Shown here in pieces: positions 1-5,126 of a stretch of 5,126 nucleotides of DNA. Source of the DNA: a virus (taxonomy: Duplodnaviria; Heunggongvirae; Uroviricota; Caudoviricetes); the IMG/VR virus record IMGVR_UViG_2778261416_000005, positions 1-5,126 of that record; one strand, written 5' to 3'. Under the pieces are notes generated by a model that saw only the letters and a list, made by a program, of their open reading frames with translations, was not told the origin of the DNA and ran no database searches. The first letter of the stretch is position 1. Each line of letters opens with the position of its first letter. Made by a program: the position numbers and the translations under genes.

Positions 1-708
1 TTACCAACTATGAGACGACCAGAATACTCTGCCAATAATCCTTACGGTTTCATGAAATTCATCTCTATCCATTACTTCATCCGGGTACTCTTCGCGATTT
101 ATTGATCTGATTATCACCGATGTAGGGGTGGCGATTAATGTTTTTACTCGTAACAAATCAGACTGGCAAATAGCGTAGGTTTTACCATCTCTGATTGTGG
201 TATCTTGCGTGTTAACACCAACAACATCGCCATCGTGAAGCGTTGGTTCCATGCTTTGCCCTACAACCCTAACTAGCTTGGCTGATCTTTCTGATACTCC
301 CATCTTTTTCAGATAGTGCTTTCTGAAAACCAAAGAGAACTCCGATGATTCCTCTAGCTCGCAGCTACCGCTTCCAGCTGAAAGCGAAACGTTAAGAAGA
401 GGCAACGCAACAAACTCGTCATCGTTTCTTTTAATGTCTTCCCATACCACAGCTTTTAAAGATGACTCACGGACATTGGATGGTTCTTCATGTGCACCAT
501 CCCTCATTTCACCAATACCAGAACTAAGCCATTCAGGGCGCACTTTTAAAGCATTGGCTAATTCAACCATCTTGCGAGATCCGTTTGTTTTACCGGACGA
601 CATCTTCTGTATGGCTGGCTGAGATATTCCAACCATGTCAGCAAGCTGTGATTGTGATACCCCTGCCGAGCTCATGGCTGCATTTAGTCTTTCTGCGAAT
701 GTTTTCAT
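1..708 (-). CDS. cI-like prophage repressor (N-terminal HTH, C-terminal S24/LexA-type autopeptidase domain)
   Basis: Translation shows an HTH segment (QSQLADMVGISQPAIQKM), a putative Ala-Gly cleavage site (LSAGSG), and S24 catalytic motifs (Ser in GQSMEP, Lys in RVKTL). Stop codon is at 1-3. The track ORF 1..738 begins with TTG; the first ATG is at 706-708 and a GTG at 712-714. The ATG start is preferred because the upstream operator palindromes begin at 721. Confidence 0.85.
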   Translation of the reverse strand: MKTFAERLNAAMSSAGVSQSQLADMVGISQPAIQKMSSGKTNGSRKMVELANALKVRPEWLSSGIGEMRDGAHEEPSNVRESSLKAVVWEDIKRNDDEFVALPLLNVSLSAGSGSCELEESSEFSLVFRKHYLKKMGVSERSAKLVRVVGQSMEPTLHDGDVVGVNTQDTTIRDGKTYAICQSDLLRVKTLIATPTSVIIRSINREEYPDEVMDRDEFHETVRIIGRVFWSSHSW

Positions 709-720
709 ACCCACAAATCT

Positions 721-783
721 ATAACTACGGTTATCCAAAGTAAAATAACAAAGGTTATTGCTATTTTTTATAACTTGAGTTAT
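721..783. promoter_or_regulatory. Tripartite operator array (OR-like) in the divergent cI/cro promoter region
   Basis: Three 14-bp sites with perfect inverted half-sites ATAAC-N4-GTTAT at 721-734, 745-758 and 770-783, centres 24 and 25 bp apart. They lie between the divergent repressor and cro-like genes. A possible PR -10 (TATAAG, 791-796) and an SD (AAGAGG, 807-812) precede the cro ATG. Confidence 0.55.
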
Positions 784-819
784 CTTTGGTTATAAGTAAT
801 GACCACAAGAGGTATGCTC

Positions 820-1044
820 ATGAATTTAGTAATTCAACGAGCCTTGAAAATTGTCGGTAGCCAAAAGCGCCTTGCCGACAAGTGTGGTGTAACGCAGCCA
901 GCAGTACACAAATGGCTGAAAGGCGGGTTGGTCTCTCCAGAGAAAGTTACCGCCATCGTTAACGCCACTGGAGGGCAGATCAAGGCTTACGAAATTCGCC
1001 CCGATTTGCCACACCTGTTTCCAAAACCGAATCAGGCAGCATAA
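820..1044 (+). CDS. Cro-like HTH regulator (Cro/YdaS-type small DNA-binding protein)
   Basis: A 74-aa ORF divergent from the repressor. SD AAGAGG at 807-812 sits 7 nt before ATG 820; in-frame ATGs at 799 and 814 lack a usable SD. Small basic protein with an HTH-like segment (GVTQPAVHKWLKGG). Stop TAA at 1042-1044. Confidence 0.75.
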   Translation: MNLVIQRALKIVGSQKRLADKCGVTQPAVHKWLKGGLVSPEKVTAIVNATGGQIKAYEIRPDLPHLFPKPNQAA

Positions 1045-1051
1045 GTAACAC

Positions 1052-1097
1052 CGCTCTTTAACAGTCATGGTCTTCATTCCCGCCGAAATGCGGGAAT
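1052..1097 (+). promoter_or_regulatory. nutR-like site: boxA (CGCTCTTTA) plus boxB-like hairpin
   Basis: boxA-like CGCTCTTTA at 1052-1060 follows the cro stop. An 8-bp perfect stem ATTCCCGC/GCGGGAAT (1076-1083 with 1090-1097) encloses a CGAAAT loop, which is GNRA-like. Position between cro and cII matches lambdoid nutR. Confidence 0.5.
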
Positions 1098-1102
1098 ACA
1101 AC

Positions 1103-1137
1103 GCGCATAAGTTGATGCGCATAACTTCTTATTTGTT
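1103..1137 (+). terminator. Candidate tR1-like hairpin upstream of cII
   Basis: Perfect 6-bp stem GCGCAT/ATGCGC (1103-1108 with 1115-1120) followed by a T-rich but interrupted tract ATAACTTCTTATTTGTT. Weak as an intrinsic terminator; lambda tR1 is Rho-dependent. Confidence 0.25.
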
Positions 1138-1180
1138 AAGGAAATACTTACATATGGTTCGTGCAAACAAACGCAACGAG
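1137..1180 (-). promoter_or_regulatory. PRE-like CII-activated promoter (TTGC-N6-TTGC boxes inside the cII 5' end)
   Basis: On the minus strand, TTGCGTTTGTTTGC lies at 1163-1176 (codons 3-8 of cII) and AAGTAT is the -10 at 1144-1149. This matches the lambda PRE architecture as I recall it. Confidence 0.6.
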
Positions 1181-1447
1181 GCTCTACGAATCGAGAGTGC
1201 GTTGCTTAACAAAATCGCAATGCTTGGAACTGAGAAGACAGCGGAAGCTGTGGGAGTTGATAAGTCGCAGATCAGCAGGTGGAAGAGGGACTGGATTCCA
1301 AAGTTCTCAATGCTGCTTGCTGTTCTTGAATGGGGTGTCGTTGACGACGACATGGCTCGATTAGCACGACAAGTTGCTTCGATTCTCACCAATAAAAAAC
1401 GCCCGGCGGCAACCGAGCGTTCTGATCAAATACAAATGGAATTTTAA
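1154..1447 (+). CDS. cII: CII transcriptional activator, near-identical to phage lambda CII
   Basis: A 97-aa protein MVRANKRNEALRIESALLNKIAMLGTEKTAEAVGVDKSQISRWKRDWIPKFSMLLAVLEWGVVDDDMARLARQVASILTNKKRPAATERSDQIQMEF, matching lambda CII from memory with about two substitutions. The upstream sequence TAAGGAAATACTTACAT ATG is also lambda-like. The track ORF 1067..1447 is an unsupported upstream extension. Confidence 0.92.
   Translation: MVRANKRNEALRIESALLNKIAMLGTEKTAEAVGVDKSQISRWKRDWIPKFSMLLAVLEWGVVDDDMARLARQVASILTNKKRPAATERSDQIQMEF
1391..1420 (-). terminator. Intrinsic terminator of the oop-like RNA
   Basis: On the minus strand, a 7-bp stem CGCUCGG/CCGGGCG (one G-U pair) with a 6-nt loop is followed by UUUUUUAUU (plus-strand A-tract at 1391-1399). 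Confidence 0.6.
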
Positions 1448-1469: not shown

Positions 1470-1661
1470 ATGCGAAACAAAGGCTTTAATCCACCTGATA
1501 CACACAAAGAAGCTAAGCGTTTGCGCTTCCTTCGTTCCATTGATGAAAGAACTCAAATCTCTTTTGTGAAAGTTGCCAGAACTGAGCTTCTTAAGGCTGA
1601 GGCGAGGGCGTTGCTCCCGTCTCTATCCGCACAACGCAGATGGACGGTCTGTTGGCAATGA
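1470..1661 (+). CDS. Hypothetical protein (63 aa) at the position normally occupied by replication gene O
   Basis: SD GAGG at 1459-1462 sits 7 nt before ATG 1470, just after the cII stop. No family recognised. The track ORF 1374..1661 is the same frame extended upstream into cII. May be the N-terminal part of a frameshifted gene continuing in the 1573..1914 frame. Confidence 0.45.
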
Positions 1662-1914
1662 AGCAAATGGTAATTATCGATGGTACGACTACTGCAATAA
1701 CCCCGTCGATGCATGGCCGATTATTGATGACAACGAAATAGCGTTAATCCCATCAAACGACTTTGGTTGGGTTGCTATAAGTGGTTTGATGTTAAATGGC
1801 TGTTCTTCGTACATTGATCAACGTCTTGATGGTTGTTTTCAGCATAGTGATACAAACCCACTCCGCGCCGCCATGATCGTATTTCTCATGATGCAGGACG
1901 CCAATAATGCTTAG
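1573..1914 (+). CDS. Hypothetical protein, start unresolved (open frame without an ATG until 1789; possible frameshifted gene or pseudogene)
   Basis: Long open frame with protein-like composition (…[42 protein letters not shown]…). It opens with TTG and has no SD. An ATG at 1658 overlaps the stop of the preceding ORF (ATGA) but is in a third frame that closes at 1741. By position this could be a YbcN/NinE-type nin protein, but I cannot confirm it. Confidence 0.3.
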
Positions 1915-2083
1915 CCCATCCCAATCCATTCAATACCAGAAAGAAAGCGTCGAGCGGGCTTTAACGTGCGCTAACTGCGGTCAGAAGCTGCATGTGCTGG
2001 AAGTTCACGTGTGTGAGCACTGCTGCGCAGAACTGATGAGCGATCCGAATAGCTCAATGTACGAGGAAGAAGACGATGAATGA
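1907..2083 (+). CDS. ninF: NinF-like small Cys-rich (zinc-ribbon-like) nin-region protein, 58 aa
   Basis: Manual translation gives [58 protein letters not shown], with CxxC and CxxHCC motifs and an acidic tail. SD CAGGA lies 8 nt before the ATG. The start overlaps the upstream stop (ATG 1907, TAG 1912-1914) and the stop overlaps the antirepressor start by 8 nt. Absent from the ORF track because of length. NinF assignment is from memory of the lambda nin region. Confidence 0.6.
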
Positions 2084-2798
2084 GTTAATAAATGGCAATG
2101 CCATCAAAATGACAAGCATTGAAATCGCTGAGTTGGTGGGTAAGCGTCATGACAATGTGAAACGTACCATCGAAACGCTGGCTAAAAATGGTGTTATCCG
2201 GCTTCCTCAAATTGAGGTTTCCGAAAGAATCAATAACTTAGGGTTCAATGTTCAGTACGAGCATTACGTCTTCGAAGGCGAACAAGGTAAGCGAGATAGT
2301 ATTGTTGTTGTTGCCCAGTTGTCGCCAGAGTTCACCGCTCGCCTTGTTGACCGCTGGCGAGATCTTGAAGAAGCTGCGGTTAATATCCCCAAAACGCTAC
2401 CGGAAGCGTTGCGCCTTGCTGCTGATCTTGCTGAGCAGAAAATGCAACTGGAAAACCAGCTTGCAATTGCCGCACCTAAAGTTGAGTTTGCCGATCGCGT
2501 TGGCGAGGCCAGCGGAATTTTGATTGGAAACTTTGCAAAGGTTGTCGGTATTGGTCCAAACAAACTGTTTGCGTGGATGCGCGATCACAAAATCCTTATT
2601 GCTTCAGGTTCCCGGCGCAATGTGCCAATGCAGGAATATATGGATCGCGGCTATTTCACAGTGAAAGAAACAGCGGTCAACACAAATCACGGAATACAGA
2701 TATCGTTCACCACAAAAATCACCGGGCGTGGTCAACAGTGGCTGACCAGAAAGCTGCTCGATAACGGAATGCTGAAAGTAACAGGGGAGGCTGCTTAA
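2076..2798 (+). CDS. Phage regulatory protein Rha with C-terminal KilAC/ANT antirepressor domain
   Basis: A 240-aa ORF. The N-terminus (MTSIEIAELVGKRHDNVKRTIETLAKNG … LVDRW) fits the Rha domain. The C-terminus (FADRVGEASGILIGNFAKVVGIGPNKLFAWMRDHKILI … QEYMDRGYFTVKE) fits the KilAC/ANT domain. SD GAGGA lies 8 nt before ATG 2076. Confidence 0.88.
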   Translation: MNELINGNAIKMTSIEIAELVGKRHDNVKRTIETLAKNGVIRLPQIEVSERINNLGFNVQYEHYVFEGEQGKRDSIVVVAQLSPEFTARLVDRWRDLEEAAVNIPKTLPEALRLAADLAEQKMQLENQLAIAAPKVEFADRVGEASGILIGNFAKVVGIGPNKLFAWMRDHKILIASGSRRNVPMQEYMDRGYFTVKETAVNTNHGIQISFTTKITGRGQQWLTRKLLDNGMLKVTGEAA

Positions 2799-3088
2799 TG
2801 GCTAATCTACGCAAAGAAGCACGCGGCAGAGAATGCCAGGTACGTATTTACGGCGTATGCAATGGTAATCCTGAAACTACAGTTCTGGCACATTACCGGA
2901 TGGCTGGAATTTGCGGAACGGGAATGAAGCCTGACGACCTGATCGGCGCATGGGCTTGTAGCGCGTGTCACGATGAAATCGACCGACGCACCCATAATCT
3001 CGACAACAAAGACGCCAGACTTTACCACCTCGAAGGCGTGATCAGGACGCAGGCGATACTACTGAAGGAGGGGAAGATTAAGCCATGA
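2798..3088 (+). CDS. ybcO: YbcO-like DUF1364 protein (Cys/His-rich putative nuclease of lambdoid nin regions)
   Basis: A 96-aa ORF, MANLRKEARGRECQVRIYGVCNGNPETTVLAHYR…CSACHDEIDRRTH, resembling DLP12 YbcO as recalled. SD GGGGAGG lies 7 nt upstream; TAATG overlap with the antirepressor stop. Confidence 0.85.
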   Translation: MANLRKEARGRECQVRIYGVCNGNPETTVLAHYRMAGICGTGMKPDDLIGAWACSACHDEIDRRTHNLDNKDARLYHLEGVIRTQAILLKEGKIKP

Positions 3089-3447
3089 ACGAATATCAGT
3101 TTGTGCTTCCATACCCGCCGTCGGTGAATACCTACTGGCGAAGACGGGGAAGCCAATACTACATCAGCGATAAAGGCCAGAAATACCGAAAAGACGTTCA
3201 GCAAATCATCCGCCAACTTAAGTTAGACATTTTCACCAAATCACGACTCCGCATCAAAGTAATCGCAGACGTTCCGGACTCCCGCCGCCGCGACCTCGAC
3301 AACATCCTGAAAGGTTTACTCGACTCCCTTATCCACGCCGGATTTGCGGAAGACGACGAGCAATTCGATGACATTCGCGTAATTCGTGGTGTGAAAGTAC
3401 CAGGTGGAAGGCTTGGAATAAAAATCACCGAACTGGAGAACGCATGA
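3085..3447 (+). CDS. rusA: RusA Holliday junction resolvase (crossover junction endodeoxyribonuclease)
   Basis: A 120-aa ORF with RusA hallmarks (LPYPPSVNTYW…, PDSRRRDLDNILKGLLDSL…, GGRLGIKITE). SD AAGGAGGGG upstream; ATGA overlap with the ybcO stop. Confidence 0.9.
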   Translation: MNEYQFVLPYPPSVNTYWRRRGSQYYISDKGQKYRKDVQQIIRQLKLDIFTKSRLRIKVIADVPDSRRRDLDNILKGLLDSLIHAGFAEDDEQFDDIRVIRGVKVPGGRLGIKITELENA

Positions 3448-3632
3448 ACGCCACAATTCAAACGATACCAGAGCTTCTTATCCAGACACGAGGCAATCAG
3501 ACCGAAGTGGCAAGGATGCTTTCCTGCGCAAGAGGAACAGTGCTCAAGTACAACCGAGACAGCAAAGGCGAGCGTCACGTAATAGTTAACGGCGTCCTGA
3601 TGGTCAAACAGGGCAAAAGGGGAAGGCCATGA
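3444..3632 (+). CDS. ninH: NinH-like protein
   Basis: A 62-aa ORF, TIPELLIQTRGNQTEVARMLSCARGTVLKYNRDSKGERHVIVNGVLMV, matching lambda NinH (TIPDMLVEAYGNQTEVARRLKCSRGTVRKY…). ATGA overlap with the rusA stop. Confidence 0.85.
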   Translation: MNATIQTIPELLIQTRGNQTEVARMLSCARGTVLKYNRDSKGERHVIVNGVLMVKQGKRGRP

Positions 3633-3802
3633 GACTCGAAAGCGTAGCTAAATTTCATTCGCCAAAAAGCCCGATGATGAGCGACTCACCACGGGCTACG
3701 GCTTCTGACTCTCTTTCCGGTACTGATGTGATGGCTGCTATGGGGATGGCGCAATCACAAGCCGGATTCGGAATGGCTGCATTCTGCGGTACAGGGACAT
3801 AA
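3629..3802 (+). pseudogene. Q: Truncated late antiterminator Q (lambda-type N-terminal ~53 codons only)
   Basis: Manual translation from ATG 3629 (ATGA overlap with the ninH stop) gives MRLESVAKFHSPKSPMMSDSPRATASDSLSGTDVMAAMGMAQSQAGFGMAAFCG, then TGT and stop. This matches the lambda Q N-terminus as recalled, which continues KHELSQ… after FCG. Homology ends at about 3790. Confidence 0.75.
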
Positions 3803-3882
3803 AGATACAGGCCATTACCATCGAGAAGGCGGTATGGTTTTTCTTTCGGCTTTGCTGCTTCAATCTGCTTAACGGTGAGCAT
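3790..3882 (-). pseudogene. Integrase N-terminal fragment (P4/IntS-type arm-binding region, ~31 codons) truncated at a deletion junction
   Basis: Minus-strand translation from ATG 3882 gives MLTVKQIEAAKPKEKPYRLLDGNGLYLYVPV, a typical N-terminus of tRNA-associated P4-family integrases. Beyond about 3790 the reading frame is antisense Q sequence (…PQNAAIPNPACDC…). The track ORF 3655..3918 is this chimera with a GTG-start extension. Confidence 0.65.
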
Positions 3883-4043
3883 GGGTAAAAATCCGGTGGG
3901 TAAAATTATTTTATCCACTTTTTACCCGTCATGGAGTGCGGCTGTCAACGATCTGACGCGAACCATTACGAACTGTGAATCTACGGAAGTCTTGATATTC
4001 AGGGGATTTTGCGGACTGGTACGGATGGGAGCGAACTGATAAA

Positions 4044-4118
4044 TGGTGTCCCCTGCAGGAATCGAACCTGCAATTAGCCCTTAGGAGGGGCTCGTTATAT
4101 CCATTTAACTAAGAGGAC
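4044..4118 (-). tRNA. argW: tRNA-Arg (anticodon CCU)
   Basis: The 75-nt minus-strand sequence GTCCTCTTAGTTAAATGGATATAACGAGCCCCTCCTAAGGGCTAATTGCAGGTTCGATTCCTGCAGGGGACACCA has a 7-bp acceptor stem, an anticodon loop CUCCUAA and a terminal CCA. It matches E. coli argW as recalled. Confidence 0.95.
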
Positions 4119-4193: not shown

Positions 4194-5126
4194 TTATGCC
4201 GGGTTTTTATAATTTTTCTTAATGTTTTCCGCACGTTCTGCTTTTTGGCGTGCTTCTGCTTTACGCTTATTGCTCATGTCGTTACGAATCTGTGCATGAC
4301 TCATTAACGCGAAGATAAAGGTGCCGCCGCAGATGTTCCCCGCTAAAGTAGGTAGTGCGAAGGGCCAGATGAAATCGCTCCAGTGCAGCGTACCGTTAAA
4401 CACCAGATAGAGGATTTCAACAGAACCGACCACGATATGGGTGGTGTCACCCAGGGCAATAAGCCAGGTCATCAATATAATCACCACAATCTTTGCCGCA
4501 CCCGCTGCAGGAAACATCCAAACCATAGTGGCGATCAGCCAGCCGGAAATGATCGCGTTGGCAAACATCTCGCTGGGGGTGTTCTTCATCACATCCATGC
4601 CGATTTTGACAAATGCATCGCGAGTTTCTTCATTGAAGATAGGCATATATTCAAATGCCCACGCCGCAATACCTGTCCCGAGAATATTACCCAGCAGCAC
4701 GACGCCCCATAACCGTATAAGTAAGCCGACGTTGCTCATTGTCGGTTTTTGCATGACGGGTAGTACCGCAGTCACGGTATTTTCGGTAAATAATTGCTGG
4801 CGGGCCATAATGACGATAATAAAACCAAAGGTATAACCGAGATTCTCCAGCAAGAAGCTGCCCGGCACACCTTCCAGTTCGACTTGAAATATCCCTTTTG
4901 CCAGTAACGAAGCGCCCATCGACAGACCCGCCGCAATGGCTGACCACAGTAGCGCCATTGCGTCGCGTTCCAGCTCTTTTTCACCATCCTGGCGGATATG
5001 CTCATGAATTGCCATCGCCCGGGAGGGGAGTCGGTCTTCATCTATTTCTATTTTTTTGCCGCGCTCTTTTTCTTCGCTCTCAACTTCAATTTCGTCGCTG
5101 TGTTGATCAATTTTGTCGTTGTCCAT
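4194..5126 (-). CDS. yfdC: Formate/nitrite transporter (FNT) family inner-membrane protein YfdC
   Basis: A 310-aa ORF with multiple hydrophobic transmembrane segments and acidic/basic termini, consistent with E. coli YfdC, which neighbours argW. The ATG sits exactly at the window end (5124-5126); stop at 4194-4196. Confidence 0.9.
   Translation of the reverse strand: MDNDKIDQHSDEIEVESEEKERGKKIEIDEDRLPSRAMAIHEHIRQDGEKELERDAMALLWSAIAAGLSMGASLLAKGIFQVELEGVPGSFLLENLGYTFGFIIVIMARQQLFTENTVTAVLPVMQKPTMSNVGLLIRLWGVVLLGNILGTGIAAWAFEYMPIFNEETRDAFVKIGMDVMKNTPSEMFANAIISGWLIATMVWMFPAAGAAKIVVIILMTWLIALGDTTHIVVGSVEILYLVFNGTLHWSDFIWPFALPTLAGNICGGTFIFALMSHAQIRNDMSNKRKAEARQKAERAENIKKNYKNPA

Follow-up and report, generated by a model that had tools for sequence, protein, structure and literature searches.

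The ninF gene of phage lambda is among the last genes of this phage without an assigned activity. Few small genes of the lambdoid phages of E. coli and Salmonella, including the Shiga-toxin phages, are as uniformly conserved. The linking of the nin genes into a chain has already been described, as has the tendency of mosaic joints in lambdoid phages to coincide with gene boundaries. Lambda ninF (NP_040638.1, lambda 42269..42439) starts with GTG and lies in the nin region upstream of the resolvase and Q genes. It overlaps both of its neighbours, ninE by 4 nt on the upstream side and ninG by 11 nt on the downstream side. The synteny of ninD, ninE and ninF was noted earlier (PMC4118853).

CRISPRi knockdown of lambda ninF is harmless when Q is supplied in trans, and the gene is nonessential (PMC10695390). 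In the yeast two-hybrid map of lambda, the partners of NinF are the head and tail proteins A, M and U, with no recombination protein among them; NinF-M alone was recovered with two vector pairs, and the entry for function is “unknown” (PMC3224144). NinF is thus given in the literature as a protein of unknown function (PMC10695390, PMC3224144, PMC4118853), in agreement with an earlier note on the present DNA, which stated that such small nin-region proteins have no established function. Our literature searches on NinF returned no paper with a function assigned.

The closest described relatives of the gene considered here are the ninF genes of HK629, H-19B, CUS-3 and P22-like phages (e.g., AFM76539.1), which share 97.7-98.9% DNA identity with it over all 177 nt. 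The gene order of HK629, ninX-ninF-roi-ybcO-rusA-ninH-Q, is that of the window, i.e., the whole stretch of 5,126 nt from a Caudoviricetes virus record (IMGVR_UViG_2778261416_000005) that was analysed, and this order is also seen in E. coli prophages. In H-19B and CUS-3, roi adjoins ninF as it does in the window. However, all these phages are intact, whereas the window has lost the 5' end of ninX and retains only about the first 53 codons of Q.

The ninF frame and its prophage context

The frame extends from 1907 to 2083 on the plus strand and encodes 58 aa followed by a TGA stop codon (2081-2083). Its start, ATG 1907, is the first start codon past an in-frame stop. The earlier note had proposed an open reading frame with these limits, missing from the ORF track on account of its length, and both points are borne out: the frame is open, and 58 aa fall below the 60-aa default cutoff of the ORF tool. 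A Shine-Dalgarno (SD) core, AGGA, can be read from the sequence at 1895..1898 on the plus strand, 8 nt ahead of the ATG. It had been called a good SD; the motif is indeed present, but with a core of 4 nt it is adequate rather than strong.

The ORF listing, Pfam, PHROG, megablast and the pN/pS analysis all bear on the assignment of this frame. The protein matches the Pfam family PF05810 (NinF) with 47.4 bits (E=1.8e-12) for a curated cutoff of 27.5 bits, and PF05810 is also matched by all 41 diverse members of the family alignment. PHROG 672, which carries the annotation “unknown function”, is matched over residues 1-58 of 58 (E=1.8e-37). A megablast search with the 177 nt retrieves 218 phage records with 90-99% identical DNA annotated as NinF, 173 of them at full length. 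These include HK629, H-19B, CUS-3, Stx phages and many P22-like Salmonella phages, and their annotations place NinX upstream and Roi or other genes downstream of NinF. Furthermore, eight viral contigs encode a protein that is 100% identical across all 58 residues. The frame also agrees with NinF in size and motif class (a single small protein of about 56-61 aa with a CX2C-X11-CX2C pattern) and in position (in the nin region, after ninX and before the resolvase genes and Q). Judging from these sequence comparisons, it is ninF proper of a lambdoid prophage, which goes beyond the “NinF-like” label that it had received. Relationships with NinD and NinE were also considered and were rejected (hhalign probabilities of 0.7% and 2.6%, respectively).

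Lambda NinF shares with the window protein the Cys pattern, the DPN motif and the acidic tail, and 46 of the 52 aligned residues are identical (88%, E=2e-34). Between S14 and D57, only Y52H distinguishes the two proteins; residue 58 is E in the window and G in lambda. The N-termini differ, lambda NinF beginning with VIDQNRSYEQE and being 2 residues shorter. The neighbouring genes also differ, since the window copy follows ninX and precedes roi.

The window begins with a cI-like repressor gene (1..738, minus strand), followed by a cro-like gene (799..1044), cII (1067..1447) and a short ORF (ATG 1469, stop at 1661) that is in a different frame from ninX. Upstream of ninF lies a 5'-truncated ninX remnant (1624..1914, plus strand), which matches positions 36-114 of the 114 of the Pfam Phage_P22_NinX profile. 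Comparison with the intact 115-aa NinX of E. coli BEN2908 indicates that homology begins at 1624, at about codon 27, so that the start and the initial 26 or so codons are missing from the window ninX; the TTG start listed at 1573 is mechanical. Downstream of ninF lies the gene of a Roi-type antirepressor of 240 aa (2076..2798, plus strand) with an N-terminal Rha domain and a KilAC/ANT domain (Pfam ANT, E=7.7e-33; Phage_pRha, E=1.9e-8; PHROG 63, anti-repressor), annotated as Roi in HK629. It is followed by ybcO (2798..3088), rusA (3085..3447), ninH (3444..3632) and the first 53 or so codons of Q (from 3629). Beyond Q, about the first 29 codons of intS are found on the opposite strand, then a tRNA-Arg(CCT) gene (4044..4118) and yfdC.

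By comparison with intact E. coli prophages, two deletions account for this structure. The first, near 1624/1625, took away the replication genes together with ninB, ninE and the initial 26 or so codons of ninX. The second, at about 3787-3791, removed the region from Q to intS, where an intact prophage carries lysis and morphogenesis genes. The window prophage is therefore devoid of replication, lysis and structural genes. Among 5,426 complete E. coli genomes, none has either deletion joint. Since the repressor gene is intact, the whole operon is presumably silent. In a prophage so reduced and with ninX truncated, this ninF copy may never be usefully expressed. The transcriptome of a related lysogen contained no detectable ninF transcript (PMC12922286). 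In the surroundings of ninF, Rfam and promoter/terminator scans return only the tRNA, with no hidden RNA element, and the PADLOC library of defence systems gives no match for NinF, NinX, Roi or YbcO. What has been found is a member of an already known gene family, correctly recognised in a prophage that has decayed.

Conserved core, predicted fold and selection on the protein

When 1.84 billion representative proteins were searched exhaustively with a profile of the family, only 44 representatives were retrieved at E<=0.001; a second, indexed search with a diverse profile yields 267 proteins, whose named source organisms are Escherichia, Salmonella, Klebsiella, Enterobacter, Citrobacter, Pluralibacter and Pseudocitrobacter. 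NinF proteins of Erwinia phages were added by Foldseek, from which alone they are known here. Matches in assemblies of Pseudomonas, Shewanella, Bacillota and others were rejected as contamination and do not widen this range: in 20 of the 22 such loci checked, the best aligned segment is at least 99.2% identical to phage lambda, and this segment covers the whole locus in 14 cases and extends up to the end of the 4.6-kb lambda reference in 6.

Conservation was counted over 114 cluster representatives. The earlier note had pointed out two Cys clusters and an acidic tail, and these are found where it placed them (C21/C24, C36/C39/C40 and E53-E58). The first knuckle, C21-A-N-C24 (1967..1978, plus strand), is invariant in the 41-sequence alignment, and its cysteines are conserved in 109 (C21) and 110 (C24) of the 114 representatives. 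In the second, C36-E-H-C39 followed by C40 (2012..2026, plus strand), C36 is kept in 113 and C39 in 104 representatives. The note had suggested looking for four or five conserved cysteines; four are conserved across homologs, whereas the fifth, C40, is present in only 51 of the 114. C40 is found in 7 of the 10 representatives lacking C39, among them a Salmonella variant with CEASC. Histidines are not conserved to the same extent, as H29 is present in 54 representatives and H34 in 71 (with mostly Y in the remainder), and H38 varies. On sequence grounds, the conserved ligand set is thus Cys4 (C21, C24, C36 and C39, spaced as CX2C-X11-CX2C), and neither five cysteines nor a Cys/His combination.

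Other positions are also strongly conserved. This is the case for L28 and E32 (112/114 each), for Y10 (107/114), S14 (108/114) and R17 (103/114), all three in a predicted N-terminal helix (residues 4-18; 1916..1960, plus strand), and for D46-P47-N48 (2042..2050, plus strand), a motif C-terminal to the second helix whose residues are each kept in 102-105 of the 114 representatives. The family-wide features are therefore the N-terminal helix, the Cys4 set with E32, a short second helix, the DPN motif and an acidic, probably disordered tail (E53-E58; 2063..2080, plus strand). The PF05810 model has 25 positions and covers residues 20-44 only; it therefore misses the conserved N-terminal helix as well as the DPN motif and the tail.

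The NinF proteins of Klebsiella, Enterobacter, Citrobacter, Pluralibacter and Pseudocitrobacter prophages and of Erwinia phages belong to a similar length class (47-62 aa). The enterobacterial prophage members share Y10, S14, R17, CX2C-X11-CX2C, E32, DPN and the acidic tail with the window protein. The Klebsiella and divergent E. coli variants occupy the same place in the nin region, upstream of YbcO-RusA or NinG. However, the divergent enterobacterial proteins are only 33-64% identical to the window protein, C40, H29 and H38 are replaced, and some have 2-3 additional residues ahead of DPN.

AlphaFold2 predictions gain in confidence with the depth of the alignment, from a pLDDT of 68.9 with a shallow one to a mean pLDDT of 83.1 (pTM 0.50) with the diverse alignment of 41 sequences. 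The model comprises a helix (residues 4-18), the knuckle region (19-36), a second helix (37-43) and an extended tail of low confidence. The pLDDT is about 90 for residues 21-40 and about 66 in the tail, and DSSP assigns only isolated bridges. Three Foldseek runs with two models give no match at E<=0.001, the best being RING domains in the PDB (E=0.13) and other NinF proteins in BFVD (E=0.016). RING, LIM, ribosomal zinc-ribbon and TraR structures were all matched at E>=0.13 and were not retained as structural kin. A sequence search of the PDB returns only a 19-residue match to ShdD (7ae4) around an EV(H/Y)VCE(x)C motif (E=0.0036), which is too short to serve as a functional clue.

As for the zinc ribbon suggested by the earlier note, the four cysteines in two CXXC knuckles are conserved, but no curated zinc-ribbon family is matched above its cutoff: DZR_2 reaches 17.9 bits (cutoff 27), DZR 16.6 (27.3) and Zn_ribbon_3 13.9 (27). 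Sub-threshold matches to DZR_2 are found in 26 of the 41 members of the family alignment. The likeness of NinF to small Cys4 zinc ribbons and treble-clef knuckles such as ShdD and DZR_2 lies in the two CXXC knuckles and is one of motif class, not a demonstrated homology. A zinc knuckle is probably the sensible reading of the invariant Cys4 set, in which case the four cysteines would bind one zinc ion holding a small knuckle fold.

Selection was assessed on ninF sequences extracted from the window and from 115 fetched loci, which represent 52 distinct DNA versions with a core of 49 codons. Variable sites number 10, 4 and 30 at codon positions 1, 2 and 3, respectively. The pooled pairwise pN/pS is 0.137 in the ninF frame vs 1.17 and 2.82 in the shifted frames. 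Distinct codon variants comprise 27 synonymous and 17 nonsynonymous changes for 27 and 120 sites, respectively (binomial p=3e-10). All Cys codons undergo TGC/TGT changes and none undergoes a replacement. Synonymous changes thus dominate, which supports the coding reading made in the earlier note. The same is true at larger distances. Compared with Klebsiella, Pseudocitrobacter and divergent E. coli homologs, nucleotide identity falls to 47-64% and pS is saturated (0.80-0.91) while pN is 0.23-0.45; this indicates conservation at the protein level and not of the DNA alone. Homologs of 33-47% identity with saturated synonymous sites retain Y10, C21, C24, E32, C36 and C39, so that four of the cysteines highlighted in the earlier note are indeed kept. 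The ninF protein is under purifying selection, and neither of the two outcomes that the earlier note named as refuting its reading is observed.

Overlapping ends and mosaic joints

The stop codon of the upstream frame, TAG 1912-1914, falls within codons 2-3 of ninF, and the two frames share the 8 nt ATGCTTAG (1907-1914). The earlier note had the ATG of ninF overlapping the upstream stop; the 8 nt are common to both frames, but the ATG lies just ahead of the stop and not on it. The last codons of ninX carry the SD of ninF. At the other end, the roi start, ATG 2076, is embedded in codons D57-E58 and the stop of ninF, and the overlap, ATGAATGA, covers 2076..2083 on the plus strand, i.e., the 8 nt announced by the note. 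The codons of the acidic tail, GAGGAAGAAGACGATG, contain both the SD and the ATG of the downstream gene, the SD being GAGGA at 2063-2067, the first five bases of the tail.

Translational coupling had been proposed on both sides of ninF. Both 8-nt overlaps exist. However, ninX is truncated at its 5' end and the upstream coupling has therefore probably been lost in this copy, in which the overlap with ninX survives as a relic. Ribosomes would not be expected to reach ninF by translating ninX in frame, and ninF would probably need its own AGGA. Two-sided coupling would apply to the gene arrangement of intact phages but probably not to this copy.

These overlaps are a family trait. Among 109 loci, the upstream overlap is 8 nt in 60, 1 nt in 25 and 4 nt in 19 (104/109 in all), while on the downstream side 81 loci overlap by 8 nt and 24 by 11 nt (105/109). 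These sizes hold irrespective of the neighbouring genes. Upstream, ninF is preceded by NinX variants, NinE or others; downstream are found NinG/Rap, Roi, two small ORFs (about 89 aa and 70 aa) and, in the Klebsiella variant, YbcO. The same embedded ATG serves more than eight distinct downstream gene starts, including those of NinG, Roi and YbcO. In each overlapping type examined, this ATG lies within aspartate codons of ninF (GAT G), and the purine-rich Glu/Asp codons that precede it spell GAGGA in all types except the divergent E. coli variant L120, which keeps an acidic DEED tail without GAGG. In another natural variant, L126, the tail is replaced by a mostly non-acidic one, DPN is replaced as well, and the downstream HNH gene does not overlap. 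Its tail end nevertheless reads ...GAA GAG GTG ATT TAA ct ATG, with the SD once more in glutamate codons. In the same way, the N-terminal M-L-S/T encodes the upstream stop: CTT AGC holds TAG in the window and in L126, and in the proteins that begin with MLT, to judge from their N-termini and not from DNA, CTG ACN would hold TGA.

The codons of E53-E55, GAG GAA GAA, are invariant in the 52 DNA versions although 30 of the 49 third positions vary. The acidic tail results at least in part from the housing of the SD and ATG of the next gene, and its acidity probably has a dual cause, the embedded ribosome binding site and start codon on the one hand and some selection at the protein level on the other. 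The 3' end of ninF constitutes a ready-made initiation site for whichever gene is recombined in.

When the window is aligned to 114 loci and the ends of the contiguous homology tract through ninF are recorded, these ends appear clustered. On the left, the tract ends at 1848-1861 in 57 loci, within the last 20 or so codons of ninX, at 1905-1907 in 25, which is the start of ninF, and at 1941 in 26, which is codon 12 and the point where the lambda-type N-terminus diverges. On the right, it ends at 2078-2088 in 92 of the 114 loci, directly past the embedded downstream ATG. This clustering indicates that the ninF core is a conserved island of about 140 bp (about 1941-2078, 90-99% identical) between recombination joints. 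Taken jointly, the identity as ninF, the selection on the protein, the Cys4 core and the overlap architecture form a picture that we hold with high confidence.

These same data raise the possibility that ninF is kept as a DNA or RNA linker, coupling translation along the nin genes and offering a homology patch for module exchange, while its peptide is functionless. The highly identical core island, the ends of homology at 1905-1907, 1941 and 2078-2088 and the dual-coded termini, with ATGCTTAG upstream and GAGGA...ATG downstream, would all be in keeping with such a role, as would the lack of a plaque phenotype upon ninF deletion or knockdown (PMC10695390). Yet a functionless peptide does not account for a low pN/pS (0.137) in the ninF frame only, for the survival of Cys4, Y10, S14, R17, E32 and DPN in homologs with saturated synonymous sites, or for the confident compact fold predicted by AlphaFold2. 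Furthermore, 56-61 codons of fixed length and invariant cysteines would be needless for a mere coupler. A role as linker alone therefore seems improbable, and a protein maintained for its own activity is the reading followed below.

Possible roles of NinF

The classification of ninF is unchanged by the present analysis. Both the observation and the reading of the earlier note hold, once refined in three respects: four conserved cysteines and not five, an acidic tail in double use and, in this copy, an upstream neighbour that is truncated. What is added to its annotation is a sharper core (Cys4, the Y10/S14/R17 helix, E32 and DPN), evidence of selection for the protein and not for the DNA alone, and an acidic tail that, just where mosaic joints fall, also supplies many unrelated genes downstream with their ribosome binding site and start codon.

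NinF would be synthesised from the pR transcript during the delayed-early phase. It would act as a zinc-stabilised, non-enzymatic accessory factor, dispensable under laboratory conditions, that binds a macromolecule via the conserved face formed by the helix and the knuckle. A resolvase gene (NinG or RusA) is found at most 2.5 kb downstream of ninF in 96 of 97 loci, as well as in the distant Klebsiella and E. coli variants; this linkage is weak evidence of a functional tie because the whole nin region keeps its gene order. Moreover, the gene directly 3' of ninF frequently has nothing to do with resolvases (Roi, small ORFs, HNH), and the two-hybrid partners of lambda NinF, A, M and U, also speak against a recombination partner. 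The partner of NinF might be a DNA-transaction protein, either the Rap or YbcO-RusA resolvase module or a host DNA-binding protein with which the acidic tail would make contact, a proposal that we regard as tentative and rather unlikely to prove right as worded. The more elaborate model deserves still greater reserve: NinF would be a zinc-stabilised adaptor targeting or regulating the Holliday-junction resolvase module or a host DNA-binding or defence protein, with its tail as a DNA mimic and, at the DNA level, its 3' end as a universal socket made of SD and ATG for downstream genes brought in by recombination.

NinF could also be seen as an anti-defence or host-takeover miniprotein, whose acidic tail, as a mimic of DNA, would block a host nuclease or a DNA-binding defence protein. 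The small size and acidity of NinF would suit this role, as would its dispensability in laboratory hosts, its place in an accessory region, its restriction to phages of Enterobacteriaceae and the predicted disorder of its tail. On the other hand, similarity to known inhibitor families is absent, the embedded SD and ATG account for most of the acidity of the tail, and the natural variant L126 does without DPN and most of the acidic tail. Moreover, anti-defence genes usually diversify, and ninF is uniform across phages to an unusual degree. We therefore consider an anti-defence role to be quite unlikely.

It is highly improbable that NinF is a TraR/DksA-like protein, in which a helix and a C4 zinc finger would bind the host RNAP and modulate transcription during lytic growth. 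The predicted topology (helix, C4 knuckle, helix) is reminiscent of such proteins, and weak Foldseek matches link NinF to TraR in complex with RNAP (6n57_M, E=1.2, TMq 0.41) and to a phage DksA/TraR zinc finger (BFVD, E=0.12), but these matches are non-significant and rank under RING domains. In addition, the Pfam family DksA/TraR is not among the top families matched by the 41 alignment members, even at E<=1, and the acidic residues of NinF lie in the C-terminal tail and not at the tip of a coiled coil. The spacing of the NinF knuckle (X11) is shorter than that of TraR, which also counts against this reading.

Finally, a chance frame or dead pseudogene with no coding meaning in the window, which might be invoked given the heavily deleted prophage that hosts it and the 52 ORFs of at least 30 aa that a mechanical listing gives in 5 kb, is hardly credible for an intact frame with full-length family architecture and clear family-level selection, and a chance ORF is ruled out by the family match, the in-frame selection and the eight contigs with a 100% identical protein. 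It is possible that the function of this particular copy has been lost by non-expression.

A last observation concerns fusion proteins, as NinB-NinF, NinE-NinF and NinF-YbcO fusions exist in the database. Each of them is a singleton, which fits deletions within the nin region, and they were set aside as a functional hint.

Integration site and state of the prophage

The integrase stub is flanked by a tRNA-Arg(CCT) gene (4044-4118, minus strand) and by yfdC (4194-5126, minus strand). These neighbours show the element to be a decayed lambdoid prophage inserted at argW, which is the site of CPS-53/KpLE1 in E. coli K-12. The contiguous coverage of the window by any complete E. coli genome never exceeds 44%.

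Two joints of deletions are found in this element. The first one, within 1440-1700, lies at position ~1624/1625, where ninX is joined from codon ~27, out of frame, to the sequence that follows cII. Replication genes, ninB and ninE were lost at this fusion, and a search of 5,426 complete E. coli genomes found it in none of them. In other E. coli prophages, the short ORF located 3' of cII (ATG at 1469) bears the annotation "hypothetical protein". At the second joint (~3787-3791, within 3629-3918), codons 1 to ~53 of Q, the antiterminator gene (plus strand), meet head to head codons 1 to ~29 of the integrase gene intS (minus strand), with a few bases common to both sides. The region going from Q to intS, which in an intact prophage is the place of the lysis and morphogenesis genes, is absent from the window. 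The 87-aa ORF found there (3655-3918, minus strand) is chimeric and combines the N-terminus of intS with antisense Q. This joint was likewise not found in any of the 5,426 E. coli genomes.

Resolvase module and cro-position gene

Downstream of ninF, ybcO, encoding a putative nuclease (DUF1364), and rusA occupy 2798-3447 and overlap by 4 nt. Both genes are present together 3' of ninF in 52 of the 97 loci, and NinG/Rap is found in their place in the remaining ones. It looks as if two junction-resolvase modules, ybcO-rusA or NinG/Rap, alternate in the same slot.

The 81-aa product of the gene in cro position (799-1044) has its top Pfam score with YdaS_toxin (E = 1.5e-17) and falls below cutoff with P22_Cro. 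The name YdaS_toxin suggests a toxin, but the gene adjoins the repressor gene, which is the position of a Cro-type regulator.

NinF family and its database matches

The current Pfam model of NinF, PF05810, has a length of only 25 positions, corresponding to residues 20-44. Two parts that are conserved family-wide fall outside it: the helix at the N-terminus (Y10, S14, R17) and the DPN/acidic tail. One natural variant (P0115, locus L126, 2206-2391) has its last ~15 residues exchanged for a mostly non-acidic end devoid of DPN. In this locus, an HNH endonuclease gene follows the ninF variant without overlap, and there appears to be an insertion joint within ninF. This variant could act as a natural test case for a tail swap.

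Twenty NinF "homologs" from genome contigs (L006-L023, L026 and L027) are phage lambda DNA, their best aligned segment being at least 99.2% identical to this phage. The assemblies concerned carry the names Pseudomonas, Shewanella, Oceanobacillus, Bradyrhizobium and Kitasatospora, among others, and several of the loci lie on contigs of ~48.4-48.5 kb with low coverage. These loci look like contamination of public assemblies by control DNA or vector.
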